Source of the DNA: Chiloscyllium plagiosum
Taxonomy: Eukaryota
Assembly: GCF_004010195.1 (NCBI RefSeq)
Contig: NC_057752.1
Span: 9,744,862-9,808,861, forward strand
DNA: 64,000 nucleotides
Direction of reading: 5' to 3'
The stretch's first letter is position 1. The number at the start of each line of letters is the position of its first letter. Below, in pieces: positions 7,730-60,568 of this stretch. Both the position numbers and the translations under genes were made by a program. The notes beneath the pieces are model-generated. The model ran no database searches and was not told the DNA's origin. It worked only from the letters and a program-made list of their open reading frames with translations.

Positions 7730-10445
7730 TGAGGTGGGGCAAGGCAAGATGAGGAAACTGGTGAAATCAATTTTGATGCCATCGTCTCATGAGGAGGTTG
7801 AACAGTTCATCAACTTCACAAACACCTTCCACCGTGACCTCAAGTTCACGTGGACCATCTCAAACACCTCCCTCCCTCCACTATTCCTTACTCCCAATTC
7901 CTCTGCCTCTGCCGCATCTCTTCCACTCCAGAACATTCCAGATGGCCTCTTATTTCAAGAACCACAATTGACCCTCCAACATGGTCAACAATGCCCTCCA
8001 GGCATTTCCTCCACTTCCCGTACCTCTGCCCTCGAACACCACCCCTCCCAACCACAACAAGGACAGACCCCTCCCTCCCCGGGTCATCACCTTCCACCCC
8101 ACCAATCCAAAAGACTGAAGGATAGCAAATGTTGTCCCCTTGTTCAAGAAAGGGAGTAGAGACAACCCTGGTAATTATAGACCAATGAGCCTTATTTCAG
8201 TCATGGGTAAAGTGTTGGAAAGGATTATAAGAAATAGGATTTATAATCCTCTAGAGAGGAGTAAATTGATTATGGATAGTCAACACAGTTTTGTGAAGGG
8301 TAGGTTGTGCCTCACAAACCTTATTGAGCTCTTTGAGAAGGTGACCAACCAAGTGGATGAGGGTAACGTGGTTGATGTGGTGTATATGGATTTCAGTAAG
8401 GCATTTGATAAGGTTCCCCACGGTAGGCTATTGCATAAAATACAGAGGCATGGGATTGATGGTGATTTGGTGGTTTGGATCAGAAATTGGCTAGCTGAAA
8501 GAATACAGGGTGGTGGTTGATGGGAAATGTTCATCCTGAAGTTCAGTTACTTGTGGTGTACAGCAAGGATCTGTTTTGGGTCCACTACTGTTTGTCATTT
8601 TTATAGATGACCTAGATGAGGGCATAGAAGGATGGGTTAGTAACTTTGCAGGTGACAGTAAGGTCGGTGGAGTTGTGGATAGTGCTAAAGGATGTTGCAG
8701 GTTACAGAGGGACATAGATAAGCTGCAGACCTGGGCTGAGAGGTGGCAAATGGAGTTTAATGTGGAAAAGTGTGAGGTGATTCACTTTGGAAGGAGCAAC
8801 AGGAATAAAGAGTACTGGACTAATGATAAGATTCTTGGTAGTGTGGATGAGCAGAGAGATCTCGGCGTCCAGGTACATCAATACCTGAAAGTTGCCACCC
8901 AGGTTGATAGGGTTGTTAAGAAGGCATACAATGTGTTAGCTTTTGTTGGTAGAGGAATTGAGTTTCAGAGCGACTTGGTCATGTTGCAGCTGTACAAAAC
9001 TCTGGTGTGGCCGCACTTGGAGTATTGCGTACAGTTCTGGTCACCGCATTATAGGAAGAATGTGGAAGCTTTGGAAAGGGTTCAGAGGAGATTTACCAGT
9101 ATGTTGCCTGGTATGGAGGGAAGGTCTTATGAGGAAAGGCTGAGGGACTTGAGGCTGTTTTCATTAGAGAGAAGAAGGTTGTGAGGTGACTTAATTGAGA
9201 CATACAAGATAATCAGAGGGTTAGATAGGGTGGTGATGGCTAGCACGAGAGGGCATAGCTTTAAATTGGGGGGTGATAGATATAGGACAGCTGTCAGAGG
9301 TAGATTCTTTACTCAGAGTAGTAGGGGCATGGAACACCCTGCCTGCAATAGTACTAGACTCGCCAACTTTAAGGAGATTTAAATGGTCATCGGAGAAACA
9401 TATGGATGAAAAAGGAATAATGTAGGATAGATATGCTTCAGATTGGTTCCACAGGTCAGCGCAATATCAGGGGTTGAAGGGCCTGTACTGTGCTGTAATG
9501 TTCTATGTTCTATTTCTGGATACAGCACATCATCCTACGCCATTTCCACCACCCACAATCAGACCCCACCACCAGAGATATATTCCACCCCTCTCCACCC
9601 CTATCAGCATTCCGCAGAGACCATTCCCTGAGACTGCCTCGTTAGGTCAACAACCCCCACTAACCCACCTCCCACACCTGCCAGATTTTCCTACACAACC
9701 AAATACCTCATCTACTGTGTCCATTGCTCTGTCAGGTGAAAGTGAGTACTGCAGATTCTGGAGATTAGAGTCGAGACTGTGGTGCAAAAGCCCTTCATCA
9801 GGGACGTCGATTTTCCTGCTCCTTGGATGCTGCCTGACCTGCACCATACTCTCAACCCATTGCTCTCTGTGTCTCCCTTTACACTGGGGAGACAGGACAC
9901 CACCTCGTGGGACACATGCACCAAACAACCCCACTGCCCTATGGCTGACCACCTCAACTCTCCCTTCCACTCTGCCAAGGATATGCAAGTCCTGGGCTGC
10001 GTCCACCACCAAATCCAAGCCACCTGATGCCTGGAGGAGGAACGTCTTGTCTTCTGCCTTGGGACTCTCCAAACACACGGCATCAACATCGACATCACCA
10101 GTTTCCTCCTCTCTCCTTCACCCCCACCCCCCCGACCCTCAACTCATATCCAACCCTCGAACTCGGCATCACTCTATTGAACTGTCCTACCTGTTCATGC
10201 TCCTTCCTACCTATCCACTCTGACCTATCACCATCACCAACCCACCCAACGATGCATCTACCTATCACCTTCCCTTCCTATTTATCCTTCAGCCCCCTTC
10301 TCCCTCTCCTCACTTTCCTGATGAAGGGCCTATGCCCAAAACATCAATTCTCCTGCTTGTCTGATGCTGCCTGACCTACTGCGCTTTTCCAGTGCCACAC
10401 CTTTTTTTGTCAGATTTCCAGCATTTGCAGTCCTCACTTTCTCTT
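7730..10445 (+). mobile_element. Penelope-like element (RT C-terminus + GIY-YIG region), split by a CR1 insertion
   Basis: SHEEVEQFINFTNTFHRDLKFTWTIS, IPYSQFL, MADHLNSPFHSAKDMQVLG; terminal repeat with hammerhead-like motif at 10318. Confidence 0.8.
8109..9513 (+). mobile_element. CR1 LINE, 5'-truncated, RT domain
   Basis: [40 protein letters not shown] (FADD-like), [10 protein letters not shown]; tail gttctatgttctat. Confidence 0.93.
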
Positions 10446-10857
10446 CCTCTTTCTGTACTGTAACAATTCTGTGACCCTAAACATGCTGATTGTGAATGAT
10501 ATTGAAAGAAAACTCCATAGACACTTAGGGTAGTCAGCATAATAGTTTTATACGTACAAATACAAGATTGATCTCAACCTAAGGATCACAAGGTCTGGAA
10601 TTGCAAGCCTTGATCCTAATATGATTATATTAGCTCACCAATATACTGTTAGTAAGGAACTCGAAGATCCTTACCCAGCCTGGCCTTTATGCAACTCCAG
10701 AATCCATAGTTGACCCTTGTGTGCCCTCTGAAATTATCTAGCAAGCCACTTGGCTTGTATTCAATAAGGTGGTTCACCACCAGCTAGGCAATTAGAGATA
10801 GCAATTATAAATACCTGTACATGCCAGCCTAACCAGCTACATCCACATTTCCCATCA

Positions 10858-11195
10858 GGGCAGCACGGTGGCTCAGTGGTTAGCATTGCTACCTCACAGC
10901 ACCAGGGACCCAGGTTCGATTCCAGCTTTGGGCGACTGTGTGGAGTGTGCACATTCTCCCCGTGTCTGTGTGGGTTTCCTCCAGATGCCCCGGATACCTC
11001 CCCCAATCCAAAGATGCGCAGGTCAGGTGAATTGGTCATGCTAAATTGCCCTGTAGTGTTCAGGGATGTGGAGGTTAGGTGGATTAGTCAGGGATAAATG
11101 GAGGATTATAGGAATGGGTCTGGGTGGGTTACTGTTTGGAGCGGTCAGTGTGGACTTTTTGGGTCAAACTGTTTCCACACTGTAAGGTTCTATAA
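10858..11195 (+). mobile_element. HE1-type SINE, near full length
   Basis: gggcagcacggtggctcagtggttagc...ggttcgattcc (A/B boxes)...tttccacactgtaaggttcta. Confidence 0.9.
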
Positions 11196-12035: not shown

Positions 12036-13673
12036 TGCTTCTAATCACAGAGCAGTGCAGTGCAGGAGACCGCTCAGCCCATTAACTATGTAGTAGCTCT
12101 TTCAATGAACAATCTAAATAGTTCCATTGCCTTGTTCTTTCTCTGTAATCGCTGCAATGTTTTTTTCCAAGTATTTATCCAATTCCCTTGTGAAGGATAC
12201 AGTTGAATATGTATCCACCTACATTTTAATCATAGTCATTCAATGCATGAAAGGCTTTTCCTCATCACCTGATTCTTTCACCTTGAATTGGTGCATTCTG
12301 GCCATCAAACCCTTCAACCACTGGAAACCATTTAAGCCCTTTAGGATTTTAAGCACTCCAGTCTAATCTCCTCTTTGACATCTCTGCTCTTCAGGAGAAC
12401 ATACCCCCAGATTCTTCAGCCTATCCTCATGCCTGGAATCTCTCAACCTCAGCCACTCTCGTAAATCTCTTCTGTACTCTCTCTCCAAAGCCTTCACATT
12501 TCCTTCAAAGTGCGGCACCCAGAATGGGGCAGTATTCCGAATCCACAAAGGACCAAAGGCATCTTTCTGCATTAGAGAAAGACAATTGGTTAGATACCCC
12601 ACAAGCATGGGGCAAGGTGAGGAGGCAGGCTCTCTGTTTACTGCAACAAACACAGGGAATGCTGGAGAAACTCAGCAGGTCTGGTAGCATTTGTGGTTCT
12701 CAATGCATAAAAGTGAGGTGATCTCTTTTTGGGAAGAATGAGGAAAGACAACACAAATTAAGTGGTACAATTTTAAAAGAGAACCAAAGTTCTGAAGAGT
12801 CAAAACTTTACCTCATCCCTCTTTCCATGGGTGCTGCCAGACCTGTGTTTCTCCAGCCTTCTCTGCATTTCTTGAGTTCCAGCATCCACAGTATTTTGCC
12901 TTTGTTTCCTACTACAACCAGTACAGCGATTGAACACGTGCTGTCAGCTTTATTCCACTGGTTTACCAACTGAGCAAACAGACCCAACTGATTTTTTATA
13001 GGGTTTACTATCATTTCTGGCTTTTGAACTCTCTGCCCCGTTTGTCCTATATACTTTATGAACTGCTGTGTTAAGCAGCCTTGCCATCTTCAAACATTTG
13101 TGAATAAGCATTTCTTCCTTCACTGCTTTGAAAATTCTCCCGTTTAATTTGTGTTTTCTCTCCTCTCATTCTTCCTACCAAAATATGTCACCTCACACAT
13201 TTTCCTGCATTGTCTGTCATGTGTCCATTCATCTCACCAGCCTGTCTGTATCCTCTTGAAGATTATTCCTGTCTTTCTCACTGTTTACAATAGTTCCAAG
13301 TTTCATGACATCTGCAAATTTCAAACTCATGCACTGTAACAATAAGTGAAGCTCAGTAAATGTACATCACATATGTCCCAACACTATGTGCTATTATTTA
13401 TTAGTGTTTTCTTTCTAAGTAAATAACCTTTAATATTGTCTTTTGATTATCAGCGTTTAGGGTCATTTTATTTCTTTTAGGTCCTTTTTATTGCTTGCTT
13501 TAGTGGTCTATTTCTTTTTCAGTTTTTTTATTTAAATGTTATAACTTAACAGTTAAGTTTTGCCTTTGATCACAGATTTATTAATTTCTATTTCTTGTAT
13601 TAATCCTTTAGACAGATGTGAAAGAATAAGCACATAATTGAAGGCATTCTTCTTTCTCACCTGTTTCACTCTC

Positions 13674-13701
13674 CTGATGAAGGGCTTTTACCCGAAACGT
13701 C
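13674..13701 (+). ncRNA. Minimal hammerhead ribozyme motif, family 1
   Basis: CUGAUGA-A-GGGC uuuu ACCC-GAAA-CG-UC; one stem II mismatch. Confidence 0.62.
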
Positions 13702-13974
13702 GATTCTCCTGCTCCTCGAATGCTGCCTGACCTTTTCCAACAGCTCACTCTTGACTCACTCACCCAACTGCACCAAGTTCCCAGGCTCAGCAAAGTCCAA
13801 TTTAAAGTCTTCACTTTATCAGCTTATTCTGCTGTGCCCTCTGAGCTCTGATTTCTCAAGTATTTAACATTTAAATACAGTTACAATACAAATTTTTTTA
13901 AAAATGTTATGTTTCGGGAATGTCTGTAAAATTATGGTATAATGAGGGCTGATCTTTCTGGTCTGGTGCCTTAG

Positions 13975-14570
13975 GAGAAAGTGAGGACTGCAGATGCTGG
14001 AGATATGGGTCCGGAGTGGAGGCTGAATTGGAGGCTTGGGACTAGGATAATGTGGGGGGAGGGGAAATTAGGAAGCTGTTGAAATCCACATTATCCCATG
14101 TGGTTGCAGGGTTCCAAGGCGTTATTCCTCAAGGTGTCGGGTGGTAAGGGTTTGGCGGGTGGAGGAGGCCCAGGACCTGCATGTCCTTGACGGAGTGGGA
14201 GGGGGAGTTGAAGTGTTCAGCCTCTGGGCAGTGGGGTTGGTGGGTACAGGTGTCCCAGAGATGTTCTCTGAAACGATCTGCAAGAAGGCATCCTGTCTCC
14301 CCGATGTAGAGGAGACCACACCGGGTGCAACGGATGCAGTAGGTGACATTGGTGGAAGTACAGGTGAATTTCTGACAGATGGGGAAGGATCCCTTGGGGC
14401 TTTGGACGGAGGTGAGGGGAGTGGTGTGGGCGCAGGTTTTGCACTTCCTGCGGTGGCAGGGGAAGGTGCTGGGAGTGGGGTATGGGCTGGTGGGGGGACG
14501 TGGACCTGACAAAGGAGTTGCGGAGGGAATGGTCTCTGCGGAACGCTGATAGGGGTGGGGAGGGAAATAT
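13975..14570 (-). mobile_element. Penelope-like GIY-YIG endonuclease fragment
   Basis: TFPCHRRKCKTC...FTCTSTNVTYCIRCTRCGLLYIGETGCLLADRFREH...HFNSPSH. Confidence 0.88.
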
Positions 14571-16414
14571 ATTGTCTGGTGCCTTGATTGGTATAGGGAC
14601 TGTGACCTACAGATTGATTTACTGTAACAACTGTGCAAGATATTCACACCAGTAGACAATAGTAAGGTTATCTATGATGACTGTGTGGTCTATTAATCTG
14701 TGGTCTCATCAGGAGGGGTTAGGCATGTCATATACTTGCAAACAGTTAAATTTTAAATTATACTCATGGTGGAATAGAATTGGGGGCCTAGAAGACAGCT
14801 AATTAGCATTTCTACTTGGATATCAGGCCTATATGATTCACATTACCATGGGACAGGCTTAAGAAGGGGACAGTCCATCAGAATCTTTTGCAGAATCAGG
14901 TTAGAGGGCTTCTCAAGATATCACTAACACTCAGACCGGTCATTCTGTAAGAATCTGGACGCAGAGAAATCAGATGGAATCACAAGAGTCATAAAATTGT
15001 AAAGCAGAAAAACAGACCCCTTGGTCCAAATTGTTCATGCCAACCAGATATTCTAAATTACTCTAGCCCCATTTGCCAGCATTTTGTCCAGATCCCTCTA
15101 AACCCTTTCTATTGGCAATGAGTCTCTATTGTTCACCACGCAGAACGCAAGTGGGAACTTGCATTCCAATTGAAGAGGAGAATGTTTTGTGAAGACTTTA
15201 AAAAGACTGGAATGTTCACTTAGATTTGATTAGCTGGAGGGATCTTCAAGGTAAATCACACCATGAAAGCCAGTTTGGCAATTAGAGATTACCTAGCTGG
15301 AATAAAGGAAAAGGAAGCAAGTCATTGGAAGCTGAGAATAGCTGTGGACTCATTCCTTGGAGAATAAGGTGTCCACTTAAGGGACAAAGTAAGTATGACA
15401 TGTGATTCTCCTGGTTAGTTACTGGGAATTCAAATATCGTGTTTTTTTTTAAAAAATCAGTTTTTATGGGAATACCGTTGAGTCACTGTTCCAGTTGGAC
15501 AGTTAGTCCCTAGTCTCACACCAAAACAAAAGCAAAAATACTGTGGATATTGGAAGTCTGACATCAACAAAAAGAGCTCAGGAAACTCAGCAGGTCAGGC
15601 AGAATCTGTGGAAAGAAACAGTTAATGTCTCAAGAAGAGGATGTAAAGGAAGAGCTTTTAATGCAATGGAAGTGGGGAAGGAGCAGGAAGAACAAAGGAG
15701 TCACCCACTAATACCCAAACAGTGACCTATTTACAACTGACTAACAGTCAACTGCTACTTGACTGGCAATTTTTAAATTTGAAACTAAGTTCAAATTGCA
15801 GTTTCGTATTTAAAAATATACAATTTCCATACTACTTGCCACTAAATTGCCACTTTTATTAAATTTCCCAGTTTATTGATCCTGATTCAATACTGATGTA
15901 GTGGGAAAGCTGCTGAATGGTATTAATCTAGCCACCAAGTCCTTGGGTGTATCATCTGGGTTCCAGACCCAATTACTTGTCGGCCAGCACTGACAGCCCT
16001 TCGCACTTCGGTACCCAAAGTGTCTTTGGCAACCATCACAGTCAACATGCCAGAAGGTGGACCTGTCCTTTGGTTGTATGTTGGTGGCACCTCTGCTACA
16101 AGTCATTTTTAAAACTTGATGTGGTCGAGGGTGGAAATATATCCATCATGGTTCCACAACTGCAACAAACAAACATCTCTCACTGATCTACAGTATACTG
16201 CAGTGTCTGTCCACATGTTCAATGCTCTTCAAGCATCATGCTTTCAAGCACAAGACATCCAAGACTCTTGATGAAAGCCAGATGTTCATACTGAACTTCC
16301 ACTCAGCATGGCTAGCTCCTCCTCTTTCAATCTGCTTCTCCTAGACATTCAGGGTGTGGAACCCATTGTGCATGTTCCCTTCTGGCTTAATTACAGCTCT
16401 CTCTAGGAACATGT

Positions 16415-17350
16415 TTAGGACTTATACACTTAATGGTAAGGTCCTAGGGAGTGTTGCTGAACAAAGTGACCTTGGAATGCAGGTTCATAGCTCCTTGAAA
16501 GAGTCGCAGGTAAATAGGTTGGTGAAGAAGGCATTTGGTATGCTTTCCTTTATTGATCAGAGCATTGAGTACAGGAGTTGGGAGGTCATGTTGTGGCTGT
16601 ACAGGACATTGGTTAGGCCACTTTTAGAATATTGCATACAATTCTGGTCTCCTTCCTACTGGAAGGACGTTGTGAAACTTGAAAGGGTTTAGAAAAGGAT
16701 GTTGCCAGGGTTGGAGGGCTTGAGCTACAGGGAAAGGTTGAATAGTCTGGGGCTGTTTTCCCTGGAGCGTTGGAGGCAGCATCCATGGAGAGAGAGCAAG
16801 CTAATATTTTGAGTTGGAATGTTGCGTGCAATTCTGGTTTCCCTCCTATCAGAAGGATGTTGTGAAACTTGAAAGGGTTCAGAAAAGATTTACAAGGATG
16901 TTGCTAAGGTCAGAGGATTTGAGCTACAGGAAGAGACTGGGGCTGTTTTCCCTGGAGTGTCGGAGGCTGAGGGGTGACCATATAGAGATTTATAAAATCA
17001 TGAGGGGCAGAGATAAGGTAAACAGACAAAGTCTTTTCCCTGGGGTCGGGGAGTCCAGAACTAGACAGCATTGGTTTAGGGTGAGAGGGGCAAGGTATAA
17101 AAGGGACCTGAGGGACAACTCTTTCATACAGTGGGTGGTACGTGTATGGAATGAGCTGCCAGAGGAAGTGGTGGAGGCTAGTACAATTACAGCATTTAAA
17201 AGGCACCTGGATGGGTATATGAATAGGAAGGATTTAGAGGGATATGGGCCAAGTGCTGGTAAGTGGGACTAGATTGGGTTGGGATATCTGGTCAGCATGG
17301 ACAGGTTGGACCGAAGGGTTTGTTTCTGTACTGTACATCTCTATGACTCT
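16415..17350 (+). mobile_element. Two overlapping CR1 3' fragments in tandem
   Basis: CVQFWSPSY...VVKLERV occurs at ~16630 and again at ~16820; second copy runs to the tail. Confidence 0.88.
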
Positions 17351-18464
17351 GTTTCTGGGCTGGTGCTTGTCATGTGCAAAGAGATGCTGGCAACTTTTTC
17401 CTTGTTGTTGCTCTTTATCTGCTTGCTGCTATGGCAAAGGTATGAAGGCACAAAGAGAAAACCGTAACAAAAGGAGCTGAGCAATGCAATGGCGGTTCTC
17501 CTTCACCTTATATTGAAGGATCAACATAGTGTGCACCTCATGCTGGAAAGGTTAATACAGCCAGGGCATGCAGGATGAAATGGGAAATGTGAGTGGGTTA
17601 TTCCAATTTCAAACTGCCAATTGTATGTCCTGGTAAGATCACTCAATTTTTTTCTGCTCTTGAACACTTTGCTGTGTTGGGCGATAGTGCAGTTTGACTC
17701 AGTGTCCAACTTTTGATCCACCTCTCACAGTGAATGACCTTCTGCTTGGTGGCCCCTTCACTCAGCCCAGTTGAAATGGTAAATCTCATTGAGTTCACTT
17801 ACATCAGATTATTGTGCTATGTCACATCTTTGTCGTTTTGACAACTTTTGCTAGCAGAGGGTGTTCTAGCTATTTTTCTAAATGTTTCTTCTCAGGATTT
17901 TAAACTGTTCACTTCTTAATTTCTCCTTCACCCCCTCCATCCATTTCTCTCCTAAAGATGCTTCTATTGCTGAGTTTGTTCTGTGCCAGTGAAACTTGCT
18001 TCTGTGTCAGCCAAGTGGTGATTTTGCACCTATGTTTGGATAGTAAATACTGGAATGCTAAGATGGACTAACTTAACAAGCCATAGATCCTTTCATCTTC
18101 CTGGTTCAATTCCACACTGAGAATTCATTTACAAGCTGAGTTTCCATCTGTGCTGAGTTGCTAATCTCACATAAGCCATATAATTACTTGTGCAGTTGTA
18201 GTTGTAAATGACCCTGTTTGCTCAGGCACTGTCTCTCTCCCTTTTGAAATTACTGTTATTACTCCCATTACTGCTTCTTAAAAAAAAAGAAATGAAACTA
18301 TTCTTGTTGCAAACTAGCTCCAATTCCTTATTCCTCCCCAGTCCTTGGATGTGCTTTCATCTCCCAAACCCGGTGTTTCAATCAGTTCTTTGATACAACA
18401 GCACTGAAATTGCTCAACTCAAAATCATCCATGGCATTCTCTGTGCCTGTTAATATGATGCACA

Positions 18465-19035
18465 GTTAATGTTGTGGCTGTATAGGTCATTGGTTCGGAC
18501 ACTTTTAGAATATTGCGTGCAATTCTGGTCTCCTTCCTATTGGAAGGATGCTGTGAAACTTGAAAGGGTTCAGAAAAGGACGTTGCCAGGGTTGGAGGAT
18601 TTGAGCTTTAGGGAGAGGCTGAACAGGCTGGGGCTGTTTTCCCTGGAGCGTCGGAGGCTGAGGGGTGACCTTATAGAGGTTTATAAAATCATGAGGGGAA
18701 TGGATAGTAAATAGATAAGGTCTTTTCCCTGGGGTAGGGAATTCCAGAACCAGAGGGCATAGGATAAAGTGAGAGGGAAAGATTTAAAATGGACACAAGG
18801 GGCAATGTTTTCACTCAGAGGGTGGTTGGTGTATGGAATGAGCTGCCAGAGGAAGTGGTGGAGGCTGGTACAATTACAACATTTAAAAGGCATCTGGATG
18901 GGAATATGAATAGGAAGCATTTAGAGAGATATTGGCCAAATGCTGGCAAATGGGACTAGATTAGGTTAGGATATCTGGTCAGCACGGATGAGATGGACTG
19001 AAGGGACTACTTCTGTGCTGTACCACTTTATGACT
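18465..19035 (+). mobile_element. CR1 LINE 3' fragment
   Basis: [12 protein letters not shown]...[23 protein letters not shown] plus tail. Confidence 0.9.
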
Positions 19036-19814
19036 CAGTGGGGCCAACTTAGTAATTGGTGCTATTTGTGTTGAGTATTAATTCAGCCAGAAGATGGAGC
19101 TAATGCTGCAAGTCTACAGCCACTAACAAAATATTCCATTCAGCATTGGTAAACAGATTGTGACAAATGTTTTGTTGTTCTTTGGACAGAAACCGAAGTA
19201 TCAGATAGGAGAGAGAGAAAATCTAAGAAACTGAGTGAGTGATCTAAAATTAAAGATATGGAGCAGAGTTATCATGTCAGAGGAGGAACAGGATGAGGGC
19301 TTGCAATTCCAAACCTTGTGATCCTAAGGTTGAGATCAATCTTTGTATTTGTACATATAAAACTATTATGCTGACTTCCCAAGTGTCTACGGGTTTTTTC
19401 TTCCATATTATTTAGAGTTAGCATGTTTAGAATCACAGAATTGTTACAGTACAGAAAGAGACCACTTGGCCCATCGTGTCTGCAACAGCTCTCCGAAGGA
19501 GCAGCTCATTAATGAACTGGTTGGATCTGGCCTGAGTGCAGTCATGCATACCCATCCACTTTTCCAGTCCAGTTCCACAGGAATCAGTGACTCTCTGCCC
19601 ACCAGCTATACTTTTAACAGGTTCAAAAAGTGTCATCAAGCATGACAATGTCTTGCTTGCAAGACAAAGCTTTTCACTGTGCCTCGGTACACATGACAAT
19701 CAATTCAATTTATTCTTATTCGATTAAAATATATGATTTTAATGTTTACTTGCTATTGTTTGTGTTAGGTTAACTACTATTTTTGTTTCGATTTTTACTG
19801 ATATGATTGGTGGT

Positions 19815-19925
19815 CTACCCCAACCCAGTCTTTCCCATAGGCCCCATTATGTCTATTGCGCGATTTTCTATAACACAAGGTTGCACGAGAACACAACTAC
19901 TGCACTATAGCAGAACAGACTACCT
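19815..19925. mobile_element. Possible Tc1/pogo-type MITE end
   Basis: Terminal motif gcactatagcagaacagactacctta resembles MITE TIRs; partner end not identified. Confidence 0.3.
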
Positions 19926-19964
19926 TACAAATTACATGCAAACGTGTCAAAATCTTGGAATTAT

Positions 19965-20912
19965 CTTTGTCCTTTTTATATAAATGATTTGGATGTGAAC
20001 ACAGGAGGTATGGTTAGTAAGTTTGCAGATGACACCAAAATTGGAGGTGTAGTGGACAGCGAAGAAGGTTACTTCTGAGTACAATGGGATCTTGATCAGA
20101 TGGGCCAATGGGCTGAGGAGTGGCGGATGGAGTTTAATTTAGATAAATGTGAGGTGCTGCATTTTGGAAAGGCAAATCACCACTTATACACTTAATGCGC
20201 GGGTCCTGGGGAGAGTTACCAACCAAGTAAACCATGGGGGCAGATGCATAGCTTCTTGAAAATGGAGTCAATAAGTAGACAGGGTGGTGAAGAAGGCATT
20301 TGGTCCACTTGCCTTCGCTGGTCAGTGCATTGAGTATAGGAGTTACATGCCATGTTGCAGCTGTACAGGACATTGGTAAGTCTACATTTCGAATAGTGTA
20401 CAATTCTAATCACCCTTCTATAAGAAAGATGTTGTTAAACTTGAGAGGATACAGGAAAGATTTACAAGGATGTTACTGGAACTGGAGGGTTTGAGTTCTG
20501 GGAAAGGCTGGAACTTTTTTCCCTGGATCATCGGAGACTATGGGGTGACCTTCATAGTGTTTATAAAACCAGAGAGGCATGGAATAGGTGAATAGCCAAG
20601 GTCTTATTCCTAGGTGGGTGAGTCCAGAACTAGAGGGCATAGGTTCAAGGTGAGAGGGGAAAGATTTAAAAAGGACCTGAGGGATGTTTTTATGCAGAGA
20701 GTGGTGCGTGAATGGAATGAGCTACCAGATGAAGTGGTAGAGGCAGTTACAATTACAACATTTAAAAGGCATCTGGATGGGTATATGAATAGGAAAGCTT
20801 TAGAGGGATATGGACTACATGCTGGCAAATGGGACTAAGTCAGATTGGGATGCCTGGTTGGCATAGACGAGTTGGACTGGAGATTCTGTTCCCATGCTGT
20901 ATAATTCTGACT
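19965..20912 (+). mobile_element. CR1 LINE 3' fragment
   Basis: YINDLD...[13 protein letters not shown]...WNELPDEVVEA plus tail. Confidence 0.9.
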
Positions 20913-34965: not shown

Positions 34966-35100
34966 GATGGCATGGTGGCTCAGTGGTTAGCACTGCTGCC
35001 TCACAGTGCCAGGGACCTGTCTTGGGCAACTGTGTCGACTTTGCATGTTCTCCCTGTGTCTGCGTGGGTTTCCTCCCACAATCCAAAGATGTGCAGGTCA
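34966..35100 (+). mobile_element. HE1-type SINE 5' half (3' half at ~38267-38420)
   Basis: A box and body up to gatgtgcaggtca; continues as ccatagtgttcaggg...ccacactgtgagattcta after the CR1. Confidence 0.82.
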
Positions 35101-45020: not shown

Positions 45021-45934
45021 TAAGCTATCAGACTGATTCTAGAAGTGATTTGGGAATATTTGACAGAATCAGCAGATAGGAGGTTGAGATAATGTTTCAA
45101 TATTATCAATTATACCTCCACTACTCTAACATTGAACCAACGTTCATTCCTCTTTATTGGAAAAGAACAATCCTTGAATTTTACACTTAGGGATACCAGA
45201 GCTGAAAATGTGATTAGCTATATTTTTAAGCAAACATTTATGCATTAGGCTAATTTAAAACACTACACAGTTTGGATAATTTAACAGAGCATTCTAGTTG
45301 CACTGAAAAAGGATTAATTAATGATGGTACAAGTGCAAACTATTAGAAGTTCAACTTAATGAAATTGTTTCATACTTTGTTATATTTTTATTCAGAAACC
45401 AACCACAGATGCTCTAATTTTCCAGGTTTTGAAATTGTGCAACTAGAGAGTGAGACTTACTCCACTTGAATTTACTGAAACTGCTACTTCAGTTTAAACT
45501 TAAAACACAAATACTTAACGCATCTAAAACAAATTAGATGAACAAATCGGAGGCCAGTTTTTAAAAGCAGTTTTTGGTGCAACTGACTATTCATGCTTTA
45601 GCCTGTATGAAGACATTATTGGCAAGGCCTATTAGGAGGTCTTGATTATCATAAAATAGTATGTTAATTCAAAAACAATTTAAAACCCAAAAGGTGCACT
45701 AAGCTTCTAAAATATACTGAATACAAGACTTCCAGGGTGATCTTCGTAAATAAAAGTGCAAAATTTGGACATTTACACATTGCTCTTTCCTCAGGTGCTA
45801 AAATTACGTGTTGCAGATTATACAGTCTACAACATGGGCATGAGCACCTAATCTTCTGTAGAGTGTGGATGACCTGTTTAACTTCAATATGGATGCTATA
45901 TGAACAGTTTTGCCCTAATGCAATGTTCAATATG

Positions 45935-50237: not shown

Positions 50238-53200
50238 CTGAAAAAAAAAAGAGAAAAACAAACCTGAGTAACAGTAAAAGTTTAAACTGGTCTTTTCTAA
50301 AAGCAAAGGCCAAAATTCAACTTACTCTCATCATCGCTGTCCTGCGACCCATCCTAAAGAGCAAGGAAACAATTTTTAAAGCCATTTACTAAATAGGTTG
50401 GTACAGATACATTCATTCAACATTAAAGATGGGCAAGTACCATAATTTAATACAGACACATTGTCTCCAGGTATTATGACAAGAGAAACTACAAGAGCAA
50501 ATATTCTTTCCAATCACACCAACCCCATTATAAAACATTACTATGGCATTCCACAGCTACACAATCCAAGCTGAAAAACTTTCATTCGTTGAGAGGGGAA
50601 AAGAAATTGTAGGATTAACCTCACATGCCTTAGTTTATTTATCAAACTTGCGAGCTACACCAAGTATTTCTTTCAGTCATCACCAGAAATGTTAAGTGGA
50701 AATTGCAAACTTAAGAAACTGTTGGGTTGCTGAAGTGCTTATGATAAATTACCCTCAAGATAGTGGAAAAGACTAGATCAAGTATGGCTTACTTATGATT
50801 CAATTTGAACCACTGAATCTCTAAGTGTCCAACACTCAAAATGTCATGGCGAGTGTAATGCAGTCATCTTTTCCGATTGCCTTTTAAACTTAAACTGGAT
50901 CTAAGCCTCTAACTATGCGTATACTACACTAAGAATCGCAGCTGTGCATGCACCTGCCTGGCCTTGTGGCAAGGATAATCTTATGCATCACAAGAATATT
51001 CAACACAAGATTTCCAGGGAATCTAACCTCTATCCTAATATCTGAACTAGCCATAAGCTCACTACTTGGTTAAGTCACAAAAAGTCAGTGGCAAGTGCAG
51101 TACTGTGTGCTTTGCGAAATAATGCTCAACTGTGAAAATGTCCAACACAACCAGACAATCTTTTGACAAAAAGGCTCTTGTATTTATCCAGCACCTTTTA
51201 TCTTTTTAATCAGGAGAGTCACATGAAAATGGCATGGGTAGCAGAAGCTTGATGAAAGTAGAAATAGCAATTTCAAGGAGGGAACACGAGGACAAACTCT
51301 CTGCCAACCAATCAGGCAGCAACACAGGTGATTCAATTTCAAAGATTGGCAAAGACAAAATAAGTGCTTAACAGAACTGCTGAAATAGTATCAAAGTTCT
51401 GTTGTTCTTGAAGTCAACATCTTTAAATTTCTGCCTTGACCTTGTATCTGAAGAAATTAACACTTCTCTAGTATTACGACATTGAAGAAATTCAGTTTTC
51501 TTTTTCTTTAAAAGCACACAAGAACACAAGAGTAGCATAATGGGAATGTGGACAGGGCAATGTACTCTCAAAACACTACTTATTCCTACTCTAATGTCCT
51601 CTCACGTAATTTTTTTATTCCCCTCCACAACTAGGATGGCCTGGACCACAAACTAGTCTCTTACAAATAAAAGAAATAGGACTGGTTTAGTGAGATGTCT
51701 ATGCCCTCAGAAGCAACGTGGCTATATTACCACATGCAATGCACAAAGTTTATAGAAAAGTAACAAACTTTGAATGGCAGTTGGAACAGAGCACTTGAAC
51801 TCTTGAGAATCCAGTTACAACTTTTACAGTCACTAAATTGTCCCATAAATCAAATTTCCATTTGACAATTACTACTGAAAATACACAATTCAAAAAGCCA
51901 GCATCTTCATACTTACATCATCCATTCCATCTACGTCTGGGATGTCTCCATCATCATCTCCTCCCATATTGTTCATCATCTAAAAGAAGTTTTTTTTTGT
52001 GTAAGTTTTTAAAAAAAATATCAAGTTATTACTTCTATTGCAATACACTGAATGCACCGGTGCAGAGTTACAGACAATGACGACCCAGACCAATTCCTAA
52101 CCAGTACTGAATTGATCACAATTGGGGCATCATAATTTTTAGGGAATGAGCAAAAAGGGACTGAGGACAACATACAAGGATTTGGTGATCTAATCAGAAT
52201 GAACACTGATTCGGTTGAGTAGCAATGTCAGTCACATCTGCCATACCCTTAACAGTCAAACAGCTTACCAGCATTTGCTCTCACATGAGTAGCCATATTG
52301 ATTAAAGTTGAACTATAGGCAGCCACAGAACCATATTCAACACAAAATGTTCTTCAATCATACCAGTTCTGGTTTTACAAATTTTTAAAATGATCTTATT
52401 CATAGTATAACTATTGTTTACTGGTAAAATGTTTGCCTCTCAATATTAGATTCTCTCCTGTTGACCTCAGCAAATTCAAGATATGATTCATATCCAGTGC
52501 CATTGCGCAATAATTATAGTCTGGAATTAGTTTGCACACAGAACTTGTTAAAAAGTTTACAACTAGCATTACCACGTTACTGTATACGAATTTCCCTTGT
52601 ATGGATTAATGTTACTTGTAATTGCATGCTCTGGTGCATTACACACAGGAAGATGAACGAAAAAGGTGGACAGTAGAACCTATACAAAAGGAAGTGAATC
52701 ATAGAAGCAAGTTGGTTTAATATTATACCGGAGTAGACAGTGTGGTGGTGGAAAAGCACAGCAGGTCAGGCAGCATCCGAGGAGCAGGAGAATTGCCGTT
52801 TCGGGCATCAGCCCTTCATCAGGGATGGATGATGAAGGGCTTATGGATAATACTGGAGTACAGTTTGTGATTTCCAGAAGTTTGTTTCTTAGGACATCAA
52901 GCTCCTTTCTTCAGGTATTCAAATGAGTGCACCTATTTTGCCAAATTCGATAGCTTCAACATTTGAAAAGATGTCACGACAATCCCTTTTGATGTTGTGC
53001 AAATGGAACAACAAAGCTAACTCCTAATTCCAAAATCACAGGTGCTCCTACCTGTGAGAACTTTTCAAAGCTGGACAAATCTTCTTCTTCTGGATCATCA
53101 TCCCAATCTCTCCAGTTATTGAAATCGACTTTGAGCCAGTTTAACTGTACAAAAAAGTGATCATTGAAAAAAGTGATATGGTATCATGAAGAACAAATAC

Positions 53201-56200
53201 CGAGATTGTAAAAACCAAAACATGGTTAAAATTTGCAATAAAAACAATCTGCAAAGTGCTAGAAATATTTAGTAAGTCTTGTAGTGTCTGTGCAAAAAGA
53301 AACAAAGTTAAACTGAGTAGAGTAGGAACTATGCCTGTCACTATGTGTTGTCTGATTTGAACAGTTCCTGCACTTTGTTATTAAATACAGTGCTGCAATG
53401 ATCCCAGTTACCTTGGCTTTTTCTTTGGTTAACCGTGGCCATGCTTGACCAGATTCTCCTTTTCGTAAATAGCACAAGACAGATCTGTCTGTCCGCTTGT
53501 GTTTTGAATCCTAAGGAATATATTAAGAGAACAATATATACTAGTATTAAATAGATCTGTTCAATAATACTATTCCACCAGCTATATCTATTCCAGCAAA
53601 TTTAAAAACTGATCAGTTAATAGCATTACGTTAATTCTACGCTGAGAGGGAAAACAGGGATGGTGGAGAAGGGTTGCAAGTGAAGGGGGTTAGAAGGGAG
53701 GAGATAAAAAAAATAAAACAATCACAATGTGTTTCTAATAATTCAGCCTCAACAATGTAAAATTCATGCAATGAAACTTATAAATTATTTTTTCTTTTAA
53801 ACATTTGAGATATTTGGGGAATGTTTTTTTAAAGTTGGTGCCCCACTATTGTCTTTCTAACAATACAACAAACAACAGCACTGGCGGAGGTTGGGAATAA
53901 GTCTTCCCCTTTTGGCTAAGAATTGGCCCTGGGATTTTAGGGGGTGGGGATAAGAACACCAAAATATTGTTTTGGCTCATTTATGGTCAAGATCACCAAT
54001 ACTTACACTTGGGTCAATTGCATTATAAAGGTTAACTTCATTAAAATGCTTTACGCTCTCCGCTCCTCCAAGGCAGCTGCATAGAAAGAGAGACGCCACA
54101 CAAAAGTGAATTTTAATAGCTTGTTGTTGCACACATTACAGATCAGACAGGCAATAGGTTAAAAACATTAAACAGTATTTAGATAGTAAATTTGAACAAA
54201 CACTAACATTTTATGCTCAGTCCAAAACAATACCTTAAGAAATTTATGAAAGTCCAGACAACAGAATATGAAGCAATTTTACAGCAAACAGATGTTGCTT
54301 TACCCCAAATATTTTCAAAGTGTCAGGTTTCTTGGCTTGCTTCCTCATTCCCACTGATAAAGCATTAGCTTAGTCTATCATGTTGAAGCCAAACAAGCTC
54401 AAAGTGCAGCAACCCATCTTACTACAAGACATGTACAGTCCTCATGTCTTAATGTCCTAACACGAGAGTCAACATCAGACCTAAACTACAGCTTGTATTT
54501 TCATTGGACAATAGGAATGAGCAGCCATAGTGAACGTACGAAAATAAGTTTTAGTCCTCTCCCTAGTGCTGGCAGGATTTTTTATATCCTTGGTGTCAAC
54601 CAGTTGATTTCCCTCCCAACTACCAGACTCCTGAGCTAATACAACCTGCTCTTTGACTGGAAAGAAAAACAAAATGCTGGCGATCAGTGGGTCAGGCAAC
54701 ACCCATGGAAAGAAAGCAAGCTAACGTCCAGCCTAGAGGACTCTTCAAAGCTGATATGAAAGGTGGGGGTAGTATTTATGCAGTTGTGGGGTGGGGGTGC
54801 ACATGCATGCGCAAAGAGGAGAGCAGAAAGGATGTTGACAGTTCAGATTAATTGATTGGAATGTGAAAATGGCAGATTAGAGTATCGAGCTGCCAGACTA
54901 GAAAGAACAGACAGTCCTACTGGGGTGGTAGCTTTGTTAAGTTTTCATGTATTTTCCTCATTAGACTTACCGGTCAGCTTATTTCTTCTGCTTGTATCGA
55001 CCTGCCCGTTAACTCCCCTATAGTAATATGATGCATGCACTTTACCATTTCAATCAGCAATAGCTTTCAGTTCTGACAAAGTTTTATTCCAGAAAAATGA
55101 ACAAATTATGCTCTCTGGTGAGGAAACATCTGAACTTTGCATTTGTAAATTTTAAGCATCTGCAGTATTCACCTGGGACAATGTTAACACATGGAATGGA
55201 CAGTGGCATTGGGCAGTTACTTCAAAGTCCTTTGGCAGGTTTCCCCATCTTAACTAGAGGACATTTAGGTTAACTGCAGTGTTCAGTCAGCGCAGGTTAG
55301 AAAGTGAACCTCAAAAGTCTGTACAGTTCAATATCACAACAATGCATTTCCAAGCTGAGTCAATATACCTTCATCAGGGAATAACTGAAAGAAACTGCAG
55401 ATGCTGGAAGTCAGTCAATAGACGTGAAGCTGGAAAAGCACAGGTCAGACAGCATCAGAGGAGCAAAGTGAATGTTTTTGGCCAAAACCCTTCATCACAC
55501 AATTGGGAGGGAGGGAGAGGGGAGGGGAGTGAAAGAGAGAGTCCAGAAGTATTGAAGGAAGGGGGTGTGGAAGGAGAGGTGGGACGTTGATTGGTGAATG
55601 CAGGTAGGGGGTTATTGTGATTGGCCTTTGGGAAGGACGGAGCAGAGAGGTGAGCAGAAGATGGACAGGTTAGGTCAGGAAAGGGAGGAGGATGGGTGAG
55701 GCTGGACATGGGATAAGGCTGGGGATGGAGAGACTTTGAAACTGGTGAAGTCAATACAAAGTCCATTGGGCTGTAAACATCCCAGGTGAAATATCAGGTG
55801 TTCCTTCAGTTTCCGTTTGGTCTCACTTGGACAATGGAGGCAGCCAAGGACATGTTGCCAGGGGAGTGGGAAGTGGAATTAAAATAGATGGCAACTGGAG
55901 GGTCAGGTTGGTTGGTGTGTGCAGAGCGCAGATGCTCCACGAACCAGTTGCCGAGTCTGCTTTTGGTTTGAATGAGGCCAAGGAAAGAATTCACTTTCAA
56001 GCAAGGGTGGAAATAAAGCCTGAGCACATTATTTCAAGTTTTCACTTCCACACTGCCCTGTTCAATCTATATTTAAAACTTACATGAGTTATTATTACCA
56101 TATGTAGATTAAAATTGTTAAATTTGAAATAAATCCACTTCCAATAATTTGGACCTCCAGGAAATGAATAGAGGAAAATAACTTGCATTGTCAAGTACTT

Positions 56201-58676
56201 CTATATTATGCTAATGCTGTTGGACTCATCCAGGTCTCAAAGGCAACTGCAACATCAAAACCAAACTAAGCCTGCCACATTCACCAAGGGTCAGCACAAG
56301 AAAAAACTGGAACTGACTGAGAGAAAAATCTTTCCTATCAAATGCTGGAATGCAGAAGGGAAAATCAATCCAAAGATTGTGACTATTACACAAGTTCTAC
56401 AAAGGGAAAATCATGAGACACTCTGCACAAATTCCTTCCCATTTCATTCTGTCAAAGTTAAAATTGAAGTGACTCTCTTCAGAGCTCAACCTATTATCAA
56501 AATATATAAACACAAATCCTAGGTTTGATTCCCATTTTGTGCTGTTAGCATATCAGAGCCAGGATAGCAGTTGCTACTGCCTTCAGCATGTAGGATTGGG
56601 AAAGGCTTGCCAGCTTTTGCGCAAAGATGGTGCTTCATATTCATATGCAGCTCTAGGTATATACTGCTATTTAAACTATGCCATTATACTTACGATTAGA
56701 CCTCCATTTTCAGGAGCTCACTGCATCAATCACTTTCTTAATATGCACTGCAGTGCACAACAAAGCCAAAACAGAGTCTTCCGATAGGCACATTAATTTG
56801 AATAAGATACCAGAGGGCTCCAAAGGCCTGTTAAACACCTGAGATCAGGTCAGCAACTTGGTCAGATGAATTAGTGACATTTAAAGAAAACCTGACAAGT
56901 CAAATAATCTACCCATAGTAACAGTTACTCACATCTATTAAATATAGTGCGTGCACTGGTTTTAAGTGAAAACAGTCTCAGTTGGCTGGATGGCTGCTTT
57001 GCAATGCAGAATGATGTCAACAGCATAGGTTCAATTCCCACACCAGCTGAAGGTTACCATGAAGAACTCTCCTTCTCAACCTCTTTGCCTGAGGCTTGGT
57101 GACCCAGCGAGAGAGCAGCCCTAAATGTCTGATAAAACTATGGCAACTTTACAACTGTTTGCAGGGTTAAGAAGCTTTGAAAATTAACAATTGGTTGACA
57201 AGCATACAATTCAAATGTTAATACTCTAAGCCTCATGATTCCAACAGAACTGCATACTCAAAAGCAGAACGATTCTTTCAAAAGCATCATTCATTCTGTA
57301 GAAATATTAGCATGATGGTATTAACAATATAGTTTCCTGGTCTCATCCTAGGATAATTGGAGGCTAAAAGGAGGAAAGTCAAGTGAGCAAACATTTAACA
57401 GGAAGATAAGTGATGACCTGTCGAGAATCACCAGGCTTCTGAAAACAAATGAAAAAATAGCGACAAGAGTGTCTGGAGGCCCGGACACCCGCTACTTCAA
57501 GATAGTGGAGGACCGTAAATTAGAAAAAAAAAAATCTGGCAACTTCTGATAATTACCCCAACACAGAAGTGTATGTATTGGTGTTTATGTATTGCTCCAT
57601 GTAGCTGCACAGAATGCAGAAATTTAATATCAAAAATAAAATTTCCACCTAGAGTACATTAACATTCCCAAAATTTGACATTCTACTCTAGTTACAAACT
57701 CTGGACCAAAATTGAACAAAGGTGAAACAAAATCATACAGTGGAGATACTTTTCCTTTGTCTGCATGGCCATTGTGGTAGATGCACAAGCCATGTGAAGT
57801 TCCCAAGCTATAATTATTCCAGTTTGCAACATTTCAGCCTTTCTCCAGAAGTTGACAAATTTTGTTCAGCAATTCACGTGACAGCTTGTCCTTATGTTAC
57901 AGCCGTCTGATCATCTAATTTTGCGCTTATTACAGCAGGTTGCAGATTCAGATTCTCCACTGATTTGCCAGTCTCAAGCTATACCAAGCGATGTCCATGT
58001 GAATTCAAAGATGAGAAATATTTAAGGGAAATATCTCTAGGCCAGAAACACACATCCTCGGGCAGCCAGTGTAATAGCAGCTCTGGCATGCCCATTTAGC
58101 CAAGCAACAGTAGGTAGCAATTGAAAAAACAAAAAAGAGAGGATGACAGAAAGACACGCAAAATACAGTAGTGCTGATCAAATAAGTCTCTTGCGCAGTG
58201 CCATGGCATTCTTTTACAATGGATAAGTGTAATTCAATTTTTTCCATGGGCCACGAGTTTTAACAATTAATGTTCTAAAATGGAAAAGCATATATAAACT
58301 GAACTTCAAAATATTGTAAAAATCCAGCAGAGATTATACTAATAGTTTCTGGTGACAAATATTCAGGCATACAACATCTTTGCTGAGGTGGTCACTGAAA
58401 TTTTTAACAAAAATGCTACTTATTTGTGAACAGTGCTAATGAGAAACTATTACCAGACTAAGAGCCTAGATTTCTTTTCAAATGCATTTAAGTGAAATAA
58501 AGCTGTCCCTCCGTTTATGACAGACATTTTGACATAAATGGGATTGAATATCTACTACGTACCTGAATGTAAACTTCTCTTTTTCAAAATTTATTTCAAC
58601 ATCCTTACTGTCTTCTACACAAAATTCAACAAAGACGTAGTCTCTTCGGTCATACCACTTTGCAGAAGCTGGCTGC
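50218..58676 (-). CDS. PTGES3: Prostaglandin E synthase 3 / p23 HSP90 co-chaperone, spliced CDS exons 2-8 (exon 1 supplying 'AT' of the ATG not located)
   Basis: Seven GT-AG exons (114, 70, 99, 93, 63, 28, 20 nt) splice in frame to (M)QPASAKWYDRRDYVFVEFCVEDSKDVEINFEKEKFTFSCLGGAESVKHFNEVNLYNAIDPSDSKHKRTDRSVLCYLRKGESGQAWPRLTKEKAKLNWLKVDFNNWRDWDDDPEEEDLSSFEKFSQMMNNMGGDDDGDIPDVDGMDDDGSQDSDDEKMPDLE*, 162 aa. WYDRRDYV and C-terminal KMPDLE favour PTGES3 over PTGES3L. Confidence 0.96.
50326..50353 (-). CDS. PTGES3: PTGES3 exon 7
   Basis: ctttag|GAT GGG TCG CAG GAC AGC GAT GAT GAG A|gtaagt; DGSQDSDDE. Confidence 0.93.
51917..51979 (-). CDS. PTGES3: PTGES3 exon 6
   Basis: ttttag|ATG ATG AAC...GAT GAT|gtaagt; MMNNMGGDDDGDIPDVDGMDD. 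Confidence 0.95.
53052..53144 (-). CDS. PTGES3: PTGES3 exon 5
   Basis: tacag|TTA AAC TGG...TCA CAG|gtagga; LNWLKVDFNNWRDWDDDPEEEDLSSFEKFSQ. Confidence 0.95.
53412..53510 (-). CDS. PTGES3: PTGES3 exon 4
   Basis: ttag|GAT TCA...GCC AAG|gtaact; DSKHKRTDRSVLCYLRKGESGQAWPRLTKEKAK. Confidence 0.96.
54007..54076 (-). CDS. PTGES3: PTGES3 exon 3
   Basis: gcag|C TGC CTT GGA...CCA AGT|gtaagt; CLGGAESVKHFNEVNLYNAIDPS. Confidence 0.95.
55390..55960 (-). mobile_element. Penelope-like 3' fragment in PTGES3 intron 2
   Basis: WFVEHLRSAHTNQPDPPVAIYFNSTSHSPGNMS; terminal repeat at ~55390-55497. Confidence 0.75.
56975..57150 (+). mobile_element. tRNA-derived SINE-like fragment (not HE1)
   Basis: ctcagttggctgg (A-box-like) ... 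ggttcaattccc (B-box-like). Confidence 0.45.
58563..58676 (-). CDS. PTGES3: PTGES3 exon 2
   Basis: ttag|G CAG CCA GCT...TTC AG|gtacgt; QPASAKWYDRRDYVFVEFCVEDSKDVEINFEKEKFTF. Confidence 0.95.
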
Positions 58677-60295
58677 CTAAAAGTATTATGGGAGTGAAAA
58701 CAATCACAAGGTTTGTGTGGAAAAAGACTGCAAGTTCTCAAAGCCACATGCAAAAAAGTATTTACATTCCAACAGAGTGACTTCAATACAATTCAGTCTC
58801 TGGGTTCTGCTGCTGCTAATAAAACAAAATTTGAAAGTAGCCAGGGTATCCAAATTTTGGGCCAAAAAGACAGGGCAAGAAAAAAAAAGCAGAGCAAATG
58901 AACAGCCACTGACATGGCTGCAAAGCCAACGGGTTCATCATGGAGCAATCTCAACAAAGATGTTTGATTTGTTGCTAATTTCTATAAGTGGCCTTTGGAC
59001 CAAGCTGCAAGAACAATTGAACTGATGGGGAGATCCAGCGTCTGATTCAAGAGGTCATGGATTCAAGCATCTATGTTGAGATCATCCCACAATGCACTTC
59101 CTCTGGCTATGCAATTAGCTTCAATTAAAATTAAAGCAATTTGTAATATCTTCCAATTATTACATGAAAAACAAAATATCTTGAAGCAGTTAGCTCTGAG
59201 GCATGCAATCCCTACATGACTGATAAGCAGGGGGAGCATTTTTAACCACCCAAGTTATTTTTGCCATTTTTAGGCATCTTAAATAGATTCTTTGGGAAAA
59301 ATAATTAAAGGAAAACCATTTGAATGGGGTGTGAATCTCTATGGGCATATGCATCAAAATGCCAGAGATCCTCTGAGATAAGCAATCAGAACCAGAGATC
59401 TAAATGCAATTTCACAACCCATTGCAAATACCCTACAGAATTTAAACATACCACTTAAGTATAAAGCAAATTCTCTTTAGCTTGTATATAGCACCTAGGC
59501 TCCATGCCCATGAGTGATATACCAAAATCCCTCAAATCAAAAGCAGGATTGCATAAAAGCAAAATAAAATTGTTACATATGGGGCAATGCAAGACAGAAC
59601 AGTATTACCATTAACTTAACCTGAAGAACCCAACCATCACTACAACTTTGGTGCTACAAGTGGCAAATCAAATGATATGGGAGATAACTTAAGTGGAACA
59701 TTACATTCCATACAGGAAAACTATGGAAGATTAAGCACAATTTTCCAGGCTCAGTTCCACCAGAATCCTTCCCCCCCCCCCCAACCACACCACACCACAC
59801 ACTTTCCTGAGTGGGACAAGTGCCAGTGTTTCAGCCTAGGTAACATATAGCCTGGGGTTCTGCTGGTCAACTATCCTGGTTTTCCTTGCATCAATGCTTA
59901 GCACAAAAATATATCAAACTACTTTGAGATGGTTACAGCACAAAATTAATATTCTCGTAATCTAAAATTTCTCAGTTGCTAGTCTGAAGTGCAGCTGTGA
60001 TATTAAACCAATACAGATGTTAAGCCAAGGCTGATTAGAATTCTCCCACTTCCCAACGCTGGTTGTGTTTAACACTAACCCTTGTTTTCCTTAGGAATAA
60101 CAGAACTTCCCTCAAAAGCCATCTGCAATACAAAGTTCAACAACCAAGTCACAGGGCTAATGTTCTCCCTTAGTTATGGAATGCATATATCACAGAAAGT
60201 TAAACATCTGCATGAAACTACAAGGTGTTACAGGAATTGAAAAGGTCCACATCATTGTTAACAGCTAACCCAAGAATGCAACTTTTTAAAAAAAG

Positions 60296-60568
60296 GTTGT
60301 GAGATTTACACATGAAAGAAGTGAAACCAACACTGTATTCCAACAGATGAAAGGCATAACAGAATCAAATTTTCAATGTATAATTTCAGTTACATCACAC
60401 TAAATTTTTGCTATAAATTCTGTGTTACGATTGAGCCCTCCACTATCACCTGATGAAGGAGCGTTGCTCTGAAAGCTAGTGTGCTTCCAATTAAACCTGT
60501 TGGACTATAACCTGGTGGTGAGATTTTTAACTTTGTATACCCAGTCCAACATCGGCATCTCCAAACCA
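60296..60568 (+). mobile_element. Penelope-like terminal repeat of a second family, upstream of PTGES3 exon 2
   Basis: cacctgatgaaggagcgttgctctgaaagctagtg...aaacctgttggactataacctgg...ccagtccaacatcggcatctcca. Confidence 0.65.
60450..60478 (+). ncRNA. Minimal hammerhead ribozyme motif, family 2
   Basis: cac-CUGAUGA-A-GGAGC guu GCUCU-GAAA-GC-UA-gug; palindromic AGCU stem III, stem I cac/gug. Confidence 0.62.

Follow-up and report, generated by a model that had tools for sequence, protein, structure and literature searches.

Penelope-like hammerhead motifs in a shark genome and a possible origin of their short copies at an RNA 5′ end

A stretch of 64,000 nucleotides from the shark Chiloscyllium plagiosum (RefSeq assembly GCF_004010195.1, contig NC_057752.1, positions 9,744,862 to 9,808,861; hereafter, the window) raises the question of what its hammerhead-like motifs are and how they came to be there. 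A preliminary description had listed about ten such motifs from three repeat families and attributed them to Penelope-like elements (PLEs). We find that the motifs are almost certainly real and of a known kind, namely minimal type I hammerhead ribozyme motifs (min-HHRs) in the pseudo-long terminal repeats (pLTRs) of PLEs, in three families. Hammerheads are ordinary for PLEs, and these stand out only by their abundance, the exact motifs numbering at least 108,000. Many of the short copies, or stubs, of families 1 and 2 likely stem from internally started reverse transcription that ran off a capped, uncleaved RNA 5′ end just before the ribozyme.

We searched the window with a strict descriptor (CUGANGA, an optional extra base, stem II of at least 4 bp, GAAA, a palindromic spacer, UH and stem I of at least 2 bp). 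Four places matched, 36242(+), 43858(+), 60450(+) and 41137(−), and none did in any of 100 dinucleotide shuffles of the window. Sequences were found at all 13 cited sites, but only seven (13674, 23135, 32519, 36242, 43858, 60450 and 41104(−)) keep all 11 invariant core bases when read by eye. The core is broken in the other six. G12 is replaced by A at 10318 and at 41616, the latter having been listed with no remark on decay despite loss of this catalytic base; U16.1 is replaced by G at 52795; 55470 is decayed; 43522 has lost its 5′ half and also carries G12>A; and only the 5′ half is present at 9795. Two extra partial copies, ∼39990(+) and ∼55377(−), lie beyond the cited list.

The same core, C3UGANGA9...G12AAA15.1...U16.1 H17, is abundant genome-wide. 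Exact patterns searched across 3.56 Gb gave 80,312 copies for family 1, 19,840 for family 2 and 7,900 for family 3 (in total at least 108,052), whereas the reversed patterns, used as controls, gave 0. A chance origin of the motifs is rejected by these controls together with the shuffles, and the counts bear out the earlier suggestion of a very high density. The self-cleavage ascribed to the motifs in the preliminary description is best regarded as putative. In the window, PLE pieces account for 4,108 of the 64,000 bases, i.e. at least 6.4%. That standard annotation misses the motifs is supported for Rfam, a search of the window giving no match at E ≤ 1.

All three families have stem II with a G10.1–C11.1 pair (G–U in the 60450 copy) and an extra base after A9, and in each a palindrome at 15.1–16.1 replaces helix III (ACGU, AGCU and ACGU in families 1, 2 and 3). 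The palindrome had been given as ACGU or AGCU, which fails at 23135, where it is AUGU; likewise, the GGGC/GCCC stem said to be kept in family 1 is not kept at 13674 (GGGC/ACCC) or at 32519. Helix I is short in the window matches, with 2–3 contiguous bp. Minimum-energy folds of four natural copies, as monomers and as dimers, formed stem II but not the active conformer, and were uninformative. The existence of three separate families is supported. They resist alignment with one another, and hence the agreement between them reflects shared architecture, not covariation. A fourth family, related to family 3, was seen twice among loci L021–L080 (CUGAUGA U, 6-bp stem II, CCA/UGG stem I).

Once inserted, the copies decay passively and neutrally. 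The whole core is kept in 35/69 diverged copies, roughly half of the window copies are broken, and the catalytic G12, which lies within a CpG, is kept at a frequency of 0.75 and decays like other CpG sites; it is the loss of G12 at the CpG rate, together with the proportion of cores kept, that indicates passive decay. Conservation had been proposed as a check on function, and it is indeed higher in the core (0.92) than in the flank (0.81) or loop (0.74). This difference reflects subfamily masters, not selection on copies. Similarly, the loop variation noted within family 1 consists of subfamily-diagnostic differences plus decay.

The attribution to Penelope is supported by coding sequence on both sides of the family 1 hammerhead. 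At locus L158, reverse transcriptase (RT) motifs, a C-X4-C-X2-C linker and GIY-YIG lie in one frame upstream of the ribozyme, with the frame interrupted by an assembly gap, and at L057 the match to PF01541 (E 8e-5) is above cut-off. The order in family 1 is endonuclease end, 3′ untranslated region (UTR), hammerhead, tail and then, in a minority of copies, element body. The tail continues into shared downstream sequence in 2/175 copies; this body sequence, with 3,466 genome candidates (40 scored), is shared up to ∼1 kb and contains a frame whose ATG lies 162 nt past C3. From motif resemblance, we take this frame to be the N-terminus of the open reading frame (ORF). The family 1 hammerhead would thus follow the ORF end and precede the ORF start, in different copies, and its presence on both sides of the ORF marks the terminal repeat as a pLTR. 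Families 2 and 3 hammerheads also follow GIY-YIG-type endonuclease ends, the endonuclease end being the only part seen there. A CX2-5CxxC linker before the endonuclease is present in family 1 only and is unreadable in family 2. By resemblance, family 2 is presumably Neptune-like, and family 3 presumably Poseidon-like. Among the matches to an endonuclease fragment of the window (14022–14572), those with the longest open frames were considered as full-length elements, but these frames turned out to be assembly gaps.

Sequences resembling splice acceptors were seen in the terminal repeats. The family 1 tail (L416, +112 to +128 from C3) ends in a pyrimidine tract followed by AG, shortly before an ATG, and so does the family 2 tail (window 60520–60545); no clear splice donor was seen for these tail sites, and some family 1 copies are without the TAG. 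Upstream of the ribozyme, the pLTR of two subfamilies contains a similar tract plus AG, ∼17 nt before C3 in L029 and L025 and ∼25 nt in L158. Separately, same-strand pairs of family 1 ends ∼290–450 nt apart, with element body between them, occur at L394, L399, L403, L407, L408 and L418 and are candidates for dimer cleavage.

How did the stubs acquire their shape? We mapped 208 family 1 copies from the window and sixty 10-kb stretches, 55 of which were chosen around exact matches. Their 3′ ends fall into two clusters, +81 to +98 and +121 to +130. The 5′ ends are concentrated immediately before the ribozyme: among copies reaching C3, 80/152 end at 0 to −8 (0.059 per nt), followed by 11/72 at −9 to −30 (0.007 per nt), while only 9/198 copies end around the cleavage site (+24 to +30). 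With pattern-selected copies removed, the corresponding values are 39/66, 4/27 and 9/112. A 5′ heap is also present in family 2 (13/32 at −1 to −13, a small sample). Because so few copies end around the cleavage site, the RNA templates appear not to have been cut there. Tight head-to-head pairs include 76/208 family 1 copies. Exact target duplications of at least 9 nt flank 40/244 copies (of at least 88% identity), a set in which one of the calls matches itself, two of the loci are duplicates, and junctions deliberately searched for are enriched.

Three ways of producing these 5′ ends were rejected. RT stalling at the ribozyme fold would stop on the 3′ side (+28 to +33), and no peak is present there. 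Ribozyme cleavage as their source is contradicted by the lack of a peak at C17; moreover, helix III pairing is impossible for the CUC that precedes A(−4), and NUH is missing from that place in family 2. A spliced exon upstream does not fit either: A(−4) is not immediately preceded by AG, and short copies have no upstream sequence in common.

The letters at the 5′ edge provide a further clue. In the CUGAAGA subfamily of family 1, 10,084, 10,053 and 4,676 copies genome-wide leave the template at −4, −5 and −6, respectively; in family 2, 1,436, 2,427 and 1,844 copies do so at −8, −9 and −10. Hand counts of the first 100 listed places for each position (contigs C1–C2, a non-random sample) gave G in 15, 56 and 27 for family 1 and in 25, 71 and 14 for family 2. 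Only −5 in family 1 and −9 in family 2 exceed the expected 28% G (binomial P = 6e-9 and 1e-18). In both cases the enriched G, which is often untemplated, directly precedes the A of a C|A step, A(−4) in family 1 and A(−8) in family 2. Among 92 family 1 junctions, G was found in 29/40 where a linker separates the stub from the target duplication or inverted arm, and in ∼19/29 (P = 3e-5) after possibly templated cases were set aside by eye. Of 30 family 2 loci, 21 have the G, ∼10 of them not contiguous with arm or target, again by eye. On independent contigs (run X15), loose ends gather at A(−4), and of the joints shown on that base (from 12 of 45 rows), 6/7 carry inserted letters of which the last is G.

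These data are best accounted for, in our view, by a defined RNA 5′ end. Transcription would start at A(−4) in family 1 or A(−8) in family 2, each a pyrimidine–purine initiator. The protein of the element would attach to this RNA in its 5′ part and prime at tail sites 90–130 nt downstream, as the anole element does in vitro. RT would then run off the RNA 5′ end, copying the cap as C and so leaving G in the genomic stub, and the complementary DNA (cDNA) end would join the target or a second cDNA, often via the added C. For a full-length copy, priming would have to occur at the downstream pLTR. Within this RNA the ribozyme would lie in the first 32–37 nt, and it would mostly still be uncut at the time of copying. 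Should it cut, either as a dimer or aided by protein (both published for relatives), the effect would be loss of the capped leader, not liberation of the element from a longer transcript. It is probable that RT ran off the RNA at a defined 5′ end, and on balance we favour a capped transcription start as the nature of that end. For LINE-1, 5′ untemplated G at a pyrimidine–purine start has been read as a possibly copied mRNA cap (PMC9341517).

If the G marks a capped start, the ribozyme sits 4–8 nt from the RNA 5′ end and is uncut in copied templates. This would argue against precursor release in families 1 and 2 and explain the mass of solo motifs, and it would allow exact RNA constructs to be designed and PLE start sites to be mapped in other genomes from sequence only. 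Extending the argument, we tentatively raise the possibility that the ribozyme is the first structure of the capped PLE transcript in two Neptune-like families, that thousands of genomic stubs, as run-off products of internal priming, record the start with single-base precision through the cap-derived G, and that the hammerhead serves as a decapping or translation switch removing the 32–37-nt leader, not as a means of precursor excision. Viral 5′-UTR hammerheads offer a lead for a translation role (PMC13725137), and the role of PLE hammerheads is stated as unclear in PMC8557442.

A number of observations weigh against run-off from a capped end. The estimated G excess accounts for ∼7% of copies of each family, which leaves the remainder of the pile-up to be explained by trimming or microhomology, and the positional counts come from the non-random sample described above. 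In many family 1 junctions the G is also provided by the inverted arm (9/18 where an arm covers the position) or by the target duplication (9/20 where that does), and only 3/14 unresolved family 1 junctions have it. In the older CUGAUGA/UUUU subfamily the signal at −5 is weak (G 25, A 21, C 54), in just 1,839 copies, and the extra G is absent from all copies within the window itself. Family 3 has no 5′ pile-up, 29/41 of its copies extending >60 nt. No unbroken full-length element was recovered, as candidates ran into assembly gaps. In RNA reads (X19, 2,163 reads), no pile-up of starts or ends was seen, including at the cleavage site, although a single-cell poly(A) library such as this one tests the point only weakly; a second run (X20) gave 0 reads. 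Finally, the same G would result from an RT that adds C to RNA ends irrespective of a cap.

The foremost alternative requires no RNA end at this place. Copies would arise by ordinary 5′ truncation from the 3′ pLTR, with snap-back or microhomology joining at the self-complementary front edge of the ribozyme and at AT-rich target ends, and with the G borrowed from the partner. In keeping with this, head-to-head copies are common, the start of the stub often shares 1–5 nt with the target duplication, and the G is templated by arm or target in ∼18/50 G junctions; the weak signal of the older subfamily points the same way, as does the preference of the anole endonuclease for ATT (PMC11167929). However, the G excess remains in the linker junctions (29/40). 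It is also limited to a single position per family, in two families that are unrelated and differ in their flanks, and in family 2 there is no ATT at that position. The targets of copies truncated elsewhere are without a common end motif, although these cases are few. We consider this alternative unlikely.

A second alternative, a separate non-autonomous retrozyme or SINE (short interspersed nuclear element) spreading through hammerhead cleavage and circular RNA, strikes us as very improbable. It would suit the very high copy number, the discrete units of 90 and 130 nt with target duplications, and some same-strand pairs ∼290–450 nt apart, and non-LTR retrozymes have been reported in one chondrichthyan (10.64898/2026.07.22.740005). 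However, copy ends avoid the cleavage site, an array search of the window found no tandem arrays of the hammerhead-bearing unit, and the stubs show colinearity with the PLE on both sides, with its 3′ UTR upstream and its ORF downstream. That the dispersed copies are selected self-cleaving elements in host transcripts is scarcely credible: copies are transcribed as passengers (X19 reads) and several lie within a PTGES3 gene, but G12 is lost at the CpG rate, no more than 35/69 diverged copies keep the core, and the three gene-sense copies near PTGES3 (55497, 55377 and 52822) are all broken, the intact 60450 copy being antisense.

The motifs closely resemble the min-HHRs of metazoan PLE pLTRs described by Cervera and De la Pena (2014, PMC4209133), sharing the type I core, the extra base after A9, G10.1–C11.1 and a palindromic 15.2–16.2. 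Also shared are the occurrence of several families per genome, mostly as solo copies, and opposite-strand pairs. The stems of family 1 (stem II 4 bp, stem I 2–4 bp) are shorter than those of Schistosoma (7–8 and 4–5 bp) (PMC4209133). Copy number is higher here, with at least 108,052 exact-pattern copies versus ∼9,000 in Xenopus and ∼4,000 in coelacanth, figures obtained by a different counting method (PMC4209133). Solo min-HHRs by the thousands in PLE pLTRs are thus already published (PMC4209133), and what is added here is a copy number well above the usual, together with a single mechanistic lead that can be tested. The two supplements of PMC4209133 that were searched contain no shark. In literature listings, no paper concerned shark PLE hammerheads or cap-derived G in PLEs by title or abstract; further survey supplements may include cartilaginous fish.

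Weak dimer cleavage has been described in relatives (PMC4209133; PMC6765202). For the Poseidon element PAc of Anolis, it is reported that uncut RNA is primed internally and that protein assists cleavage (Frangieh et al. 2024, PMC11167929). As here, two internal start sites of reverse transcription define a 30–40-nt tail, uncut RNA is the main template and no reads end at the cleavage site (PMC11167929). The PAc ORF starts inside the ribozyme, unlike family 1 with its ATG 162 nt after C3, and the examined parts of PMC11167929 mention neither a start site nor a 5′ pile-up nor an extra G. In Drosophila virilis, Penelope has an internal TATA-less promoter with an initiator in the pLTR, and the ribozyme lies in the 5′ leader (Schostak et al. 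2008, PMC2377424). There, the transcription start is separated from the ribozyme downstream by 46 nt and a 75-nt intron (PMC2377424), compared to the putative 4–8 nt here. The Neptune and Penelope/Poseidon clades likewise have a C-terminal GIY-YIG, inverted 5′-truncated copies and a tail (Craig et al. 2021, PMC8557442); both the inverted copies and the optional 30–40-nt tail are present here, and the CX2-5CxxC linker of family 1 is a Neptune/Nematis feature (PMC8557442). Non-LTR retrozymes are also PLE-derived type I hammerhead units in vertebrates, but occur as tandem arrays, whereas ours are dispersed stubs with ends away from the cleavage site (10.64898/2026.07.22.740005).

Most copies in the window are decayed end-pieces, present as stubs of 90–130 nt or as longer remnants. 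The family 1 stub at 36237–36333(+) has an intact hammerhead (36242–36269), a short tail and a 10-bp target duplication, and interrupts an RT frame that we take to be of CR1 type. Another, at 43855–43985(+), combines an intact hammerhead of the 3-bp stem I subfamily (43858–43885) with a long tail and a 15-bp target duplication. The core is intact in the stub at 13672–13757(+), which has a C–A mismatch in stem II. At 22873–23262(+), a GIY-YIG-type endonuclease end precedes a family 1 hammerhead with intact core and AUGU palindrome (23135–23162) and a tail; by itself this piece has no Pfam match. The fragment at 14022–14572(−), with family 1 zinc linker and GIY-YIG endonuclease, matches PF01541 at E 0.004, below the curated cut-off, and has 121,476 candidates in the genome. 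An old family 1 3′ end occupies 9901–10443(+), with 421 nt upstream, the G12>A hammerhead at 10318 and a tail; head-to-head family 1 fragments at 9734–9842 include the 5′ half motif at 9795(−). A decayed head-to-head pair at 32409–32594 contains the hammerhead at 32519(+), its core intact and stem II weak.

More degraded family 1 pieces are the stub at 43522–43645(+), with a broken core, the U16.1>G stub at 52741–52827(−), the 3′ end at 55413–55807(−), adjoining the half motif at 55377(−), and a partial copy at 39991–40033(+) in which the 5′ half of the core is absent. Family 2 is represented by a 3′ end at 60250–60537(+), with 205 nt upstream, an intact-core hammerhead (60450–60478, 3-bp stem I, AGCU palindrome) and a tail. 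In family 3, an inverted complex at 41023–41687 holds the intact hammerhead 41104–41137(−) and the G12>A copy 41616–41649(+), with an endonuclease C-terminus in between.

The rest of the window contains a host gene and other repeats. LINE (long interspersed nuclear element) fragments are numerous (8100–9200, 16300–21000, 29500–30800, 35000–37900 and 45900–47300), with RVT_1 matches in two pieces; they are presumably of CR1 type. A frame at 27111–27821(−), without Pfam support, we take to be L1 ORF1-like. SINE-like copies at 5155, 10770, 29221, 35017 and 42394 presumably resemble the shark HE1 SINE. A Gypsy-type RT/RNase H fragment at 18–500(+) matches PF17919. Exons of the PTGES3 (p23) gene lie on the minus strand at 58563–58678, ∼54075 and ∼53430–53500, with a PDB match at E 3e-18.

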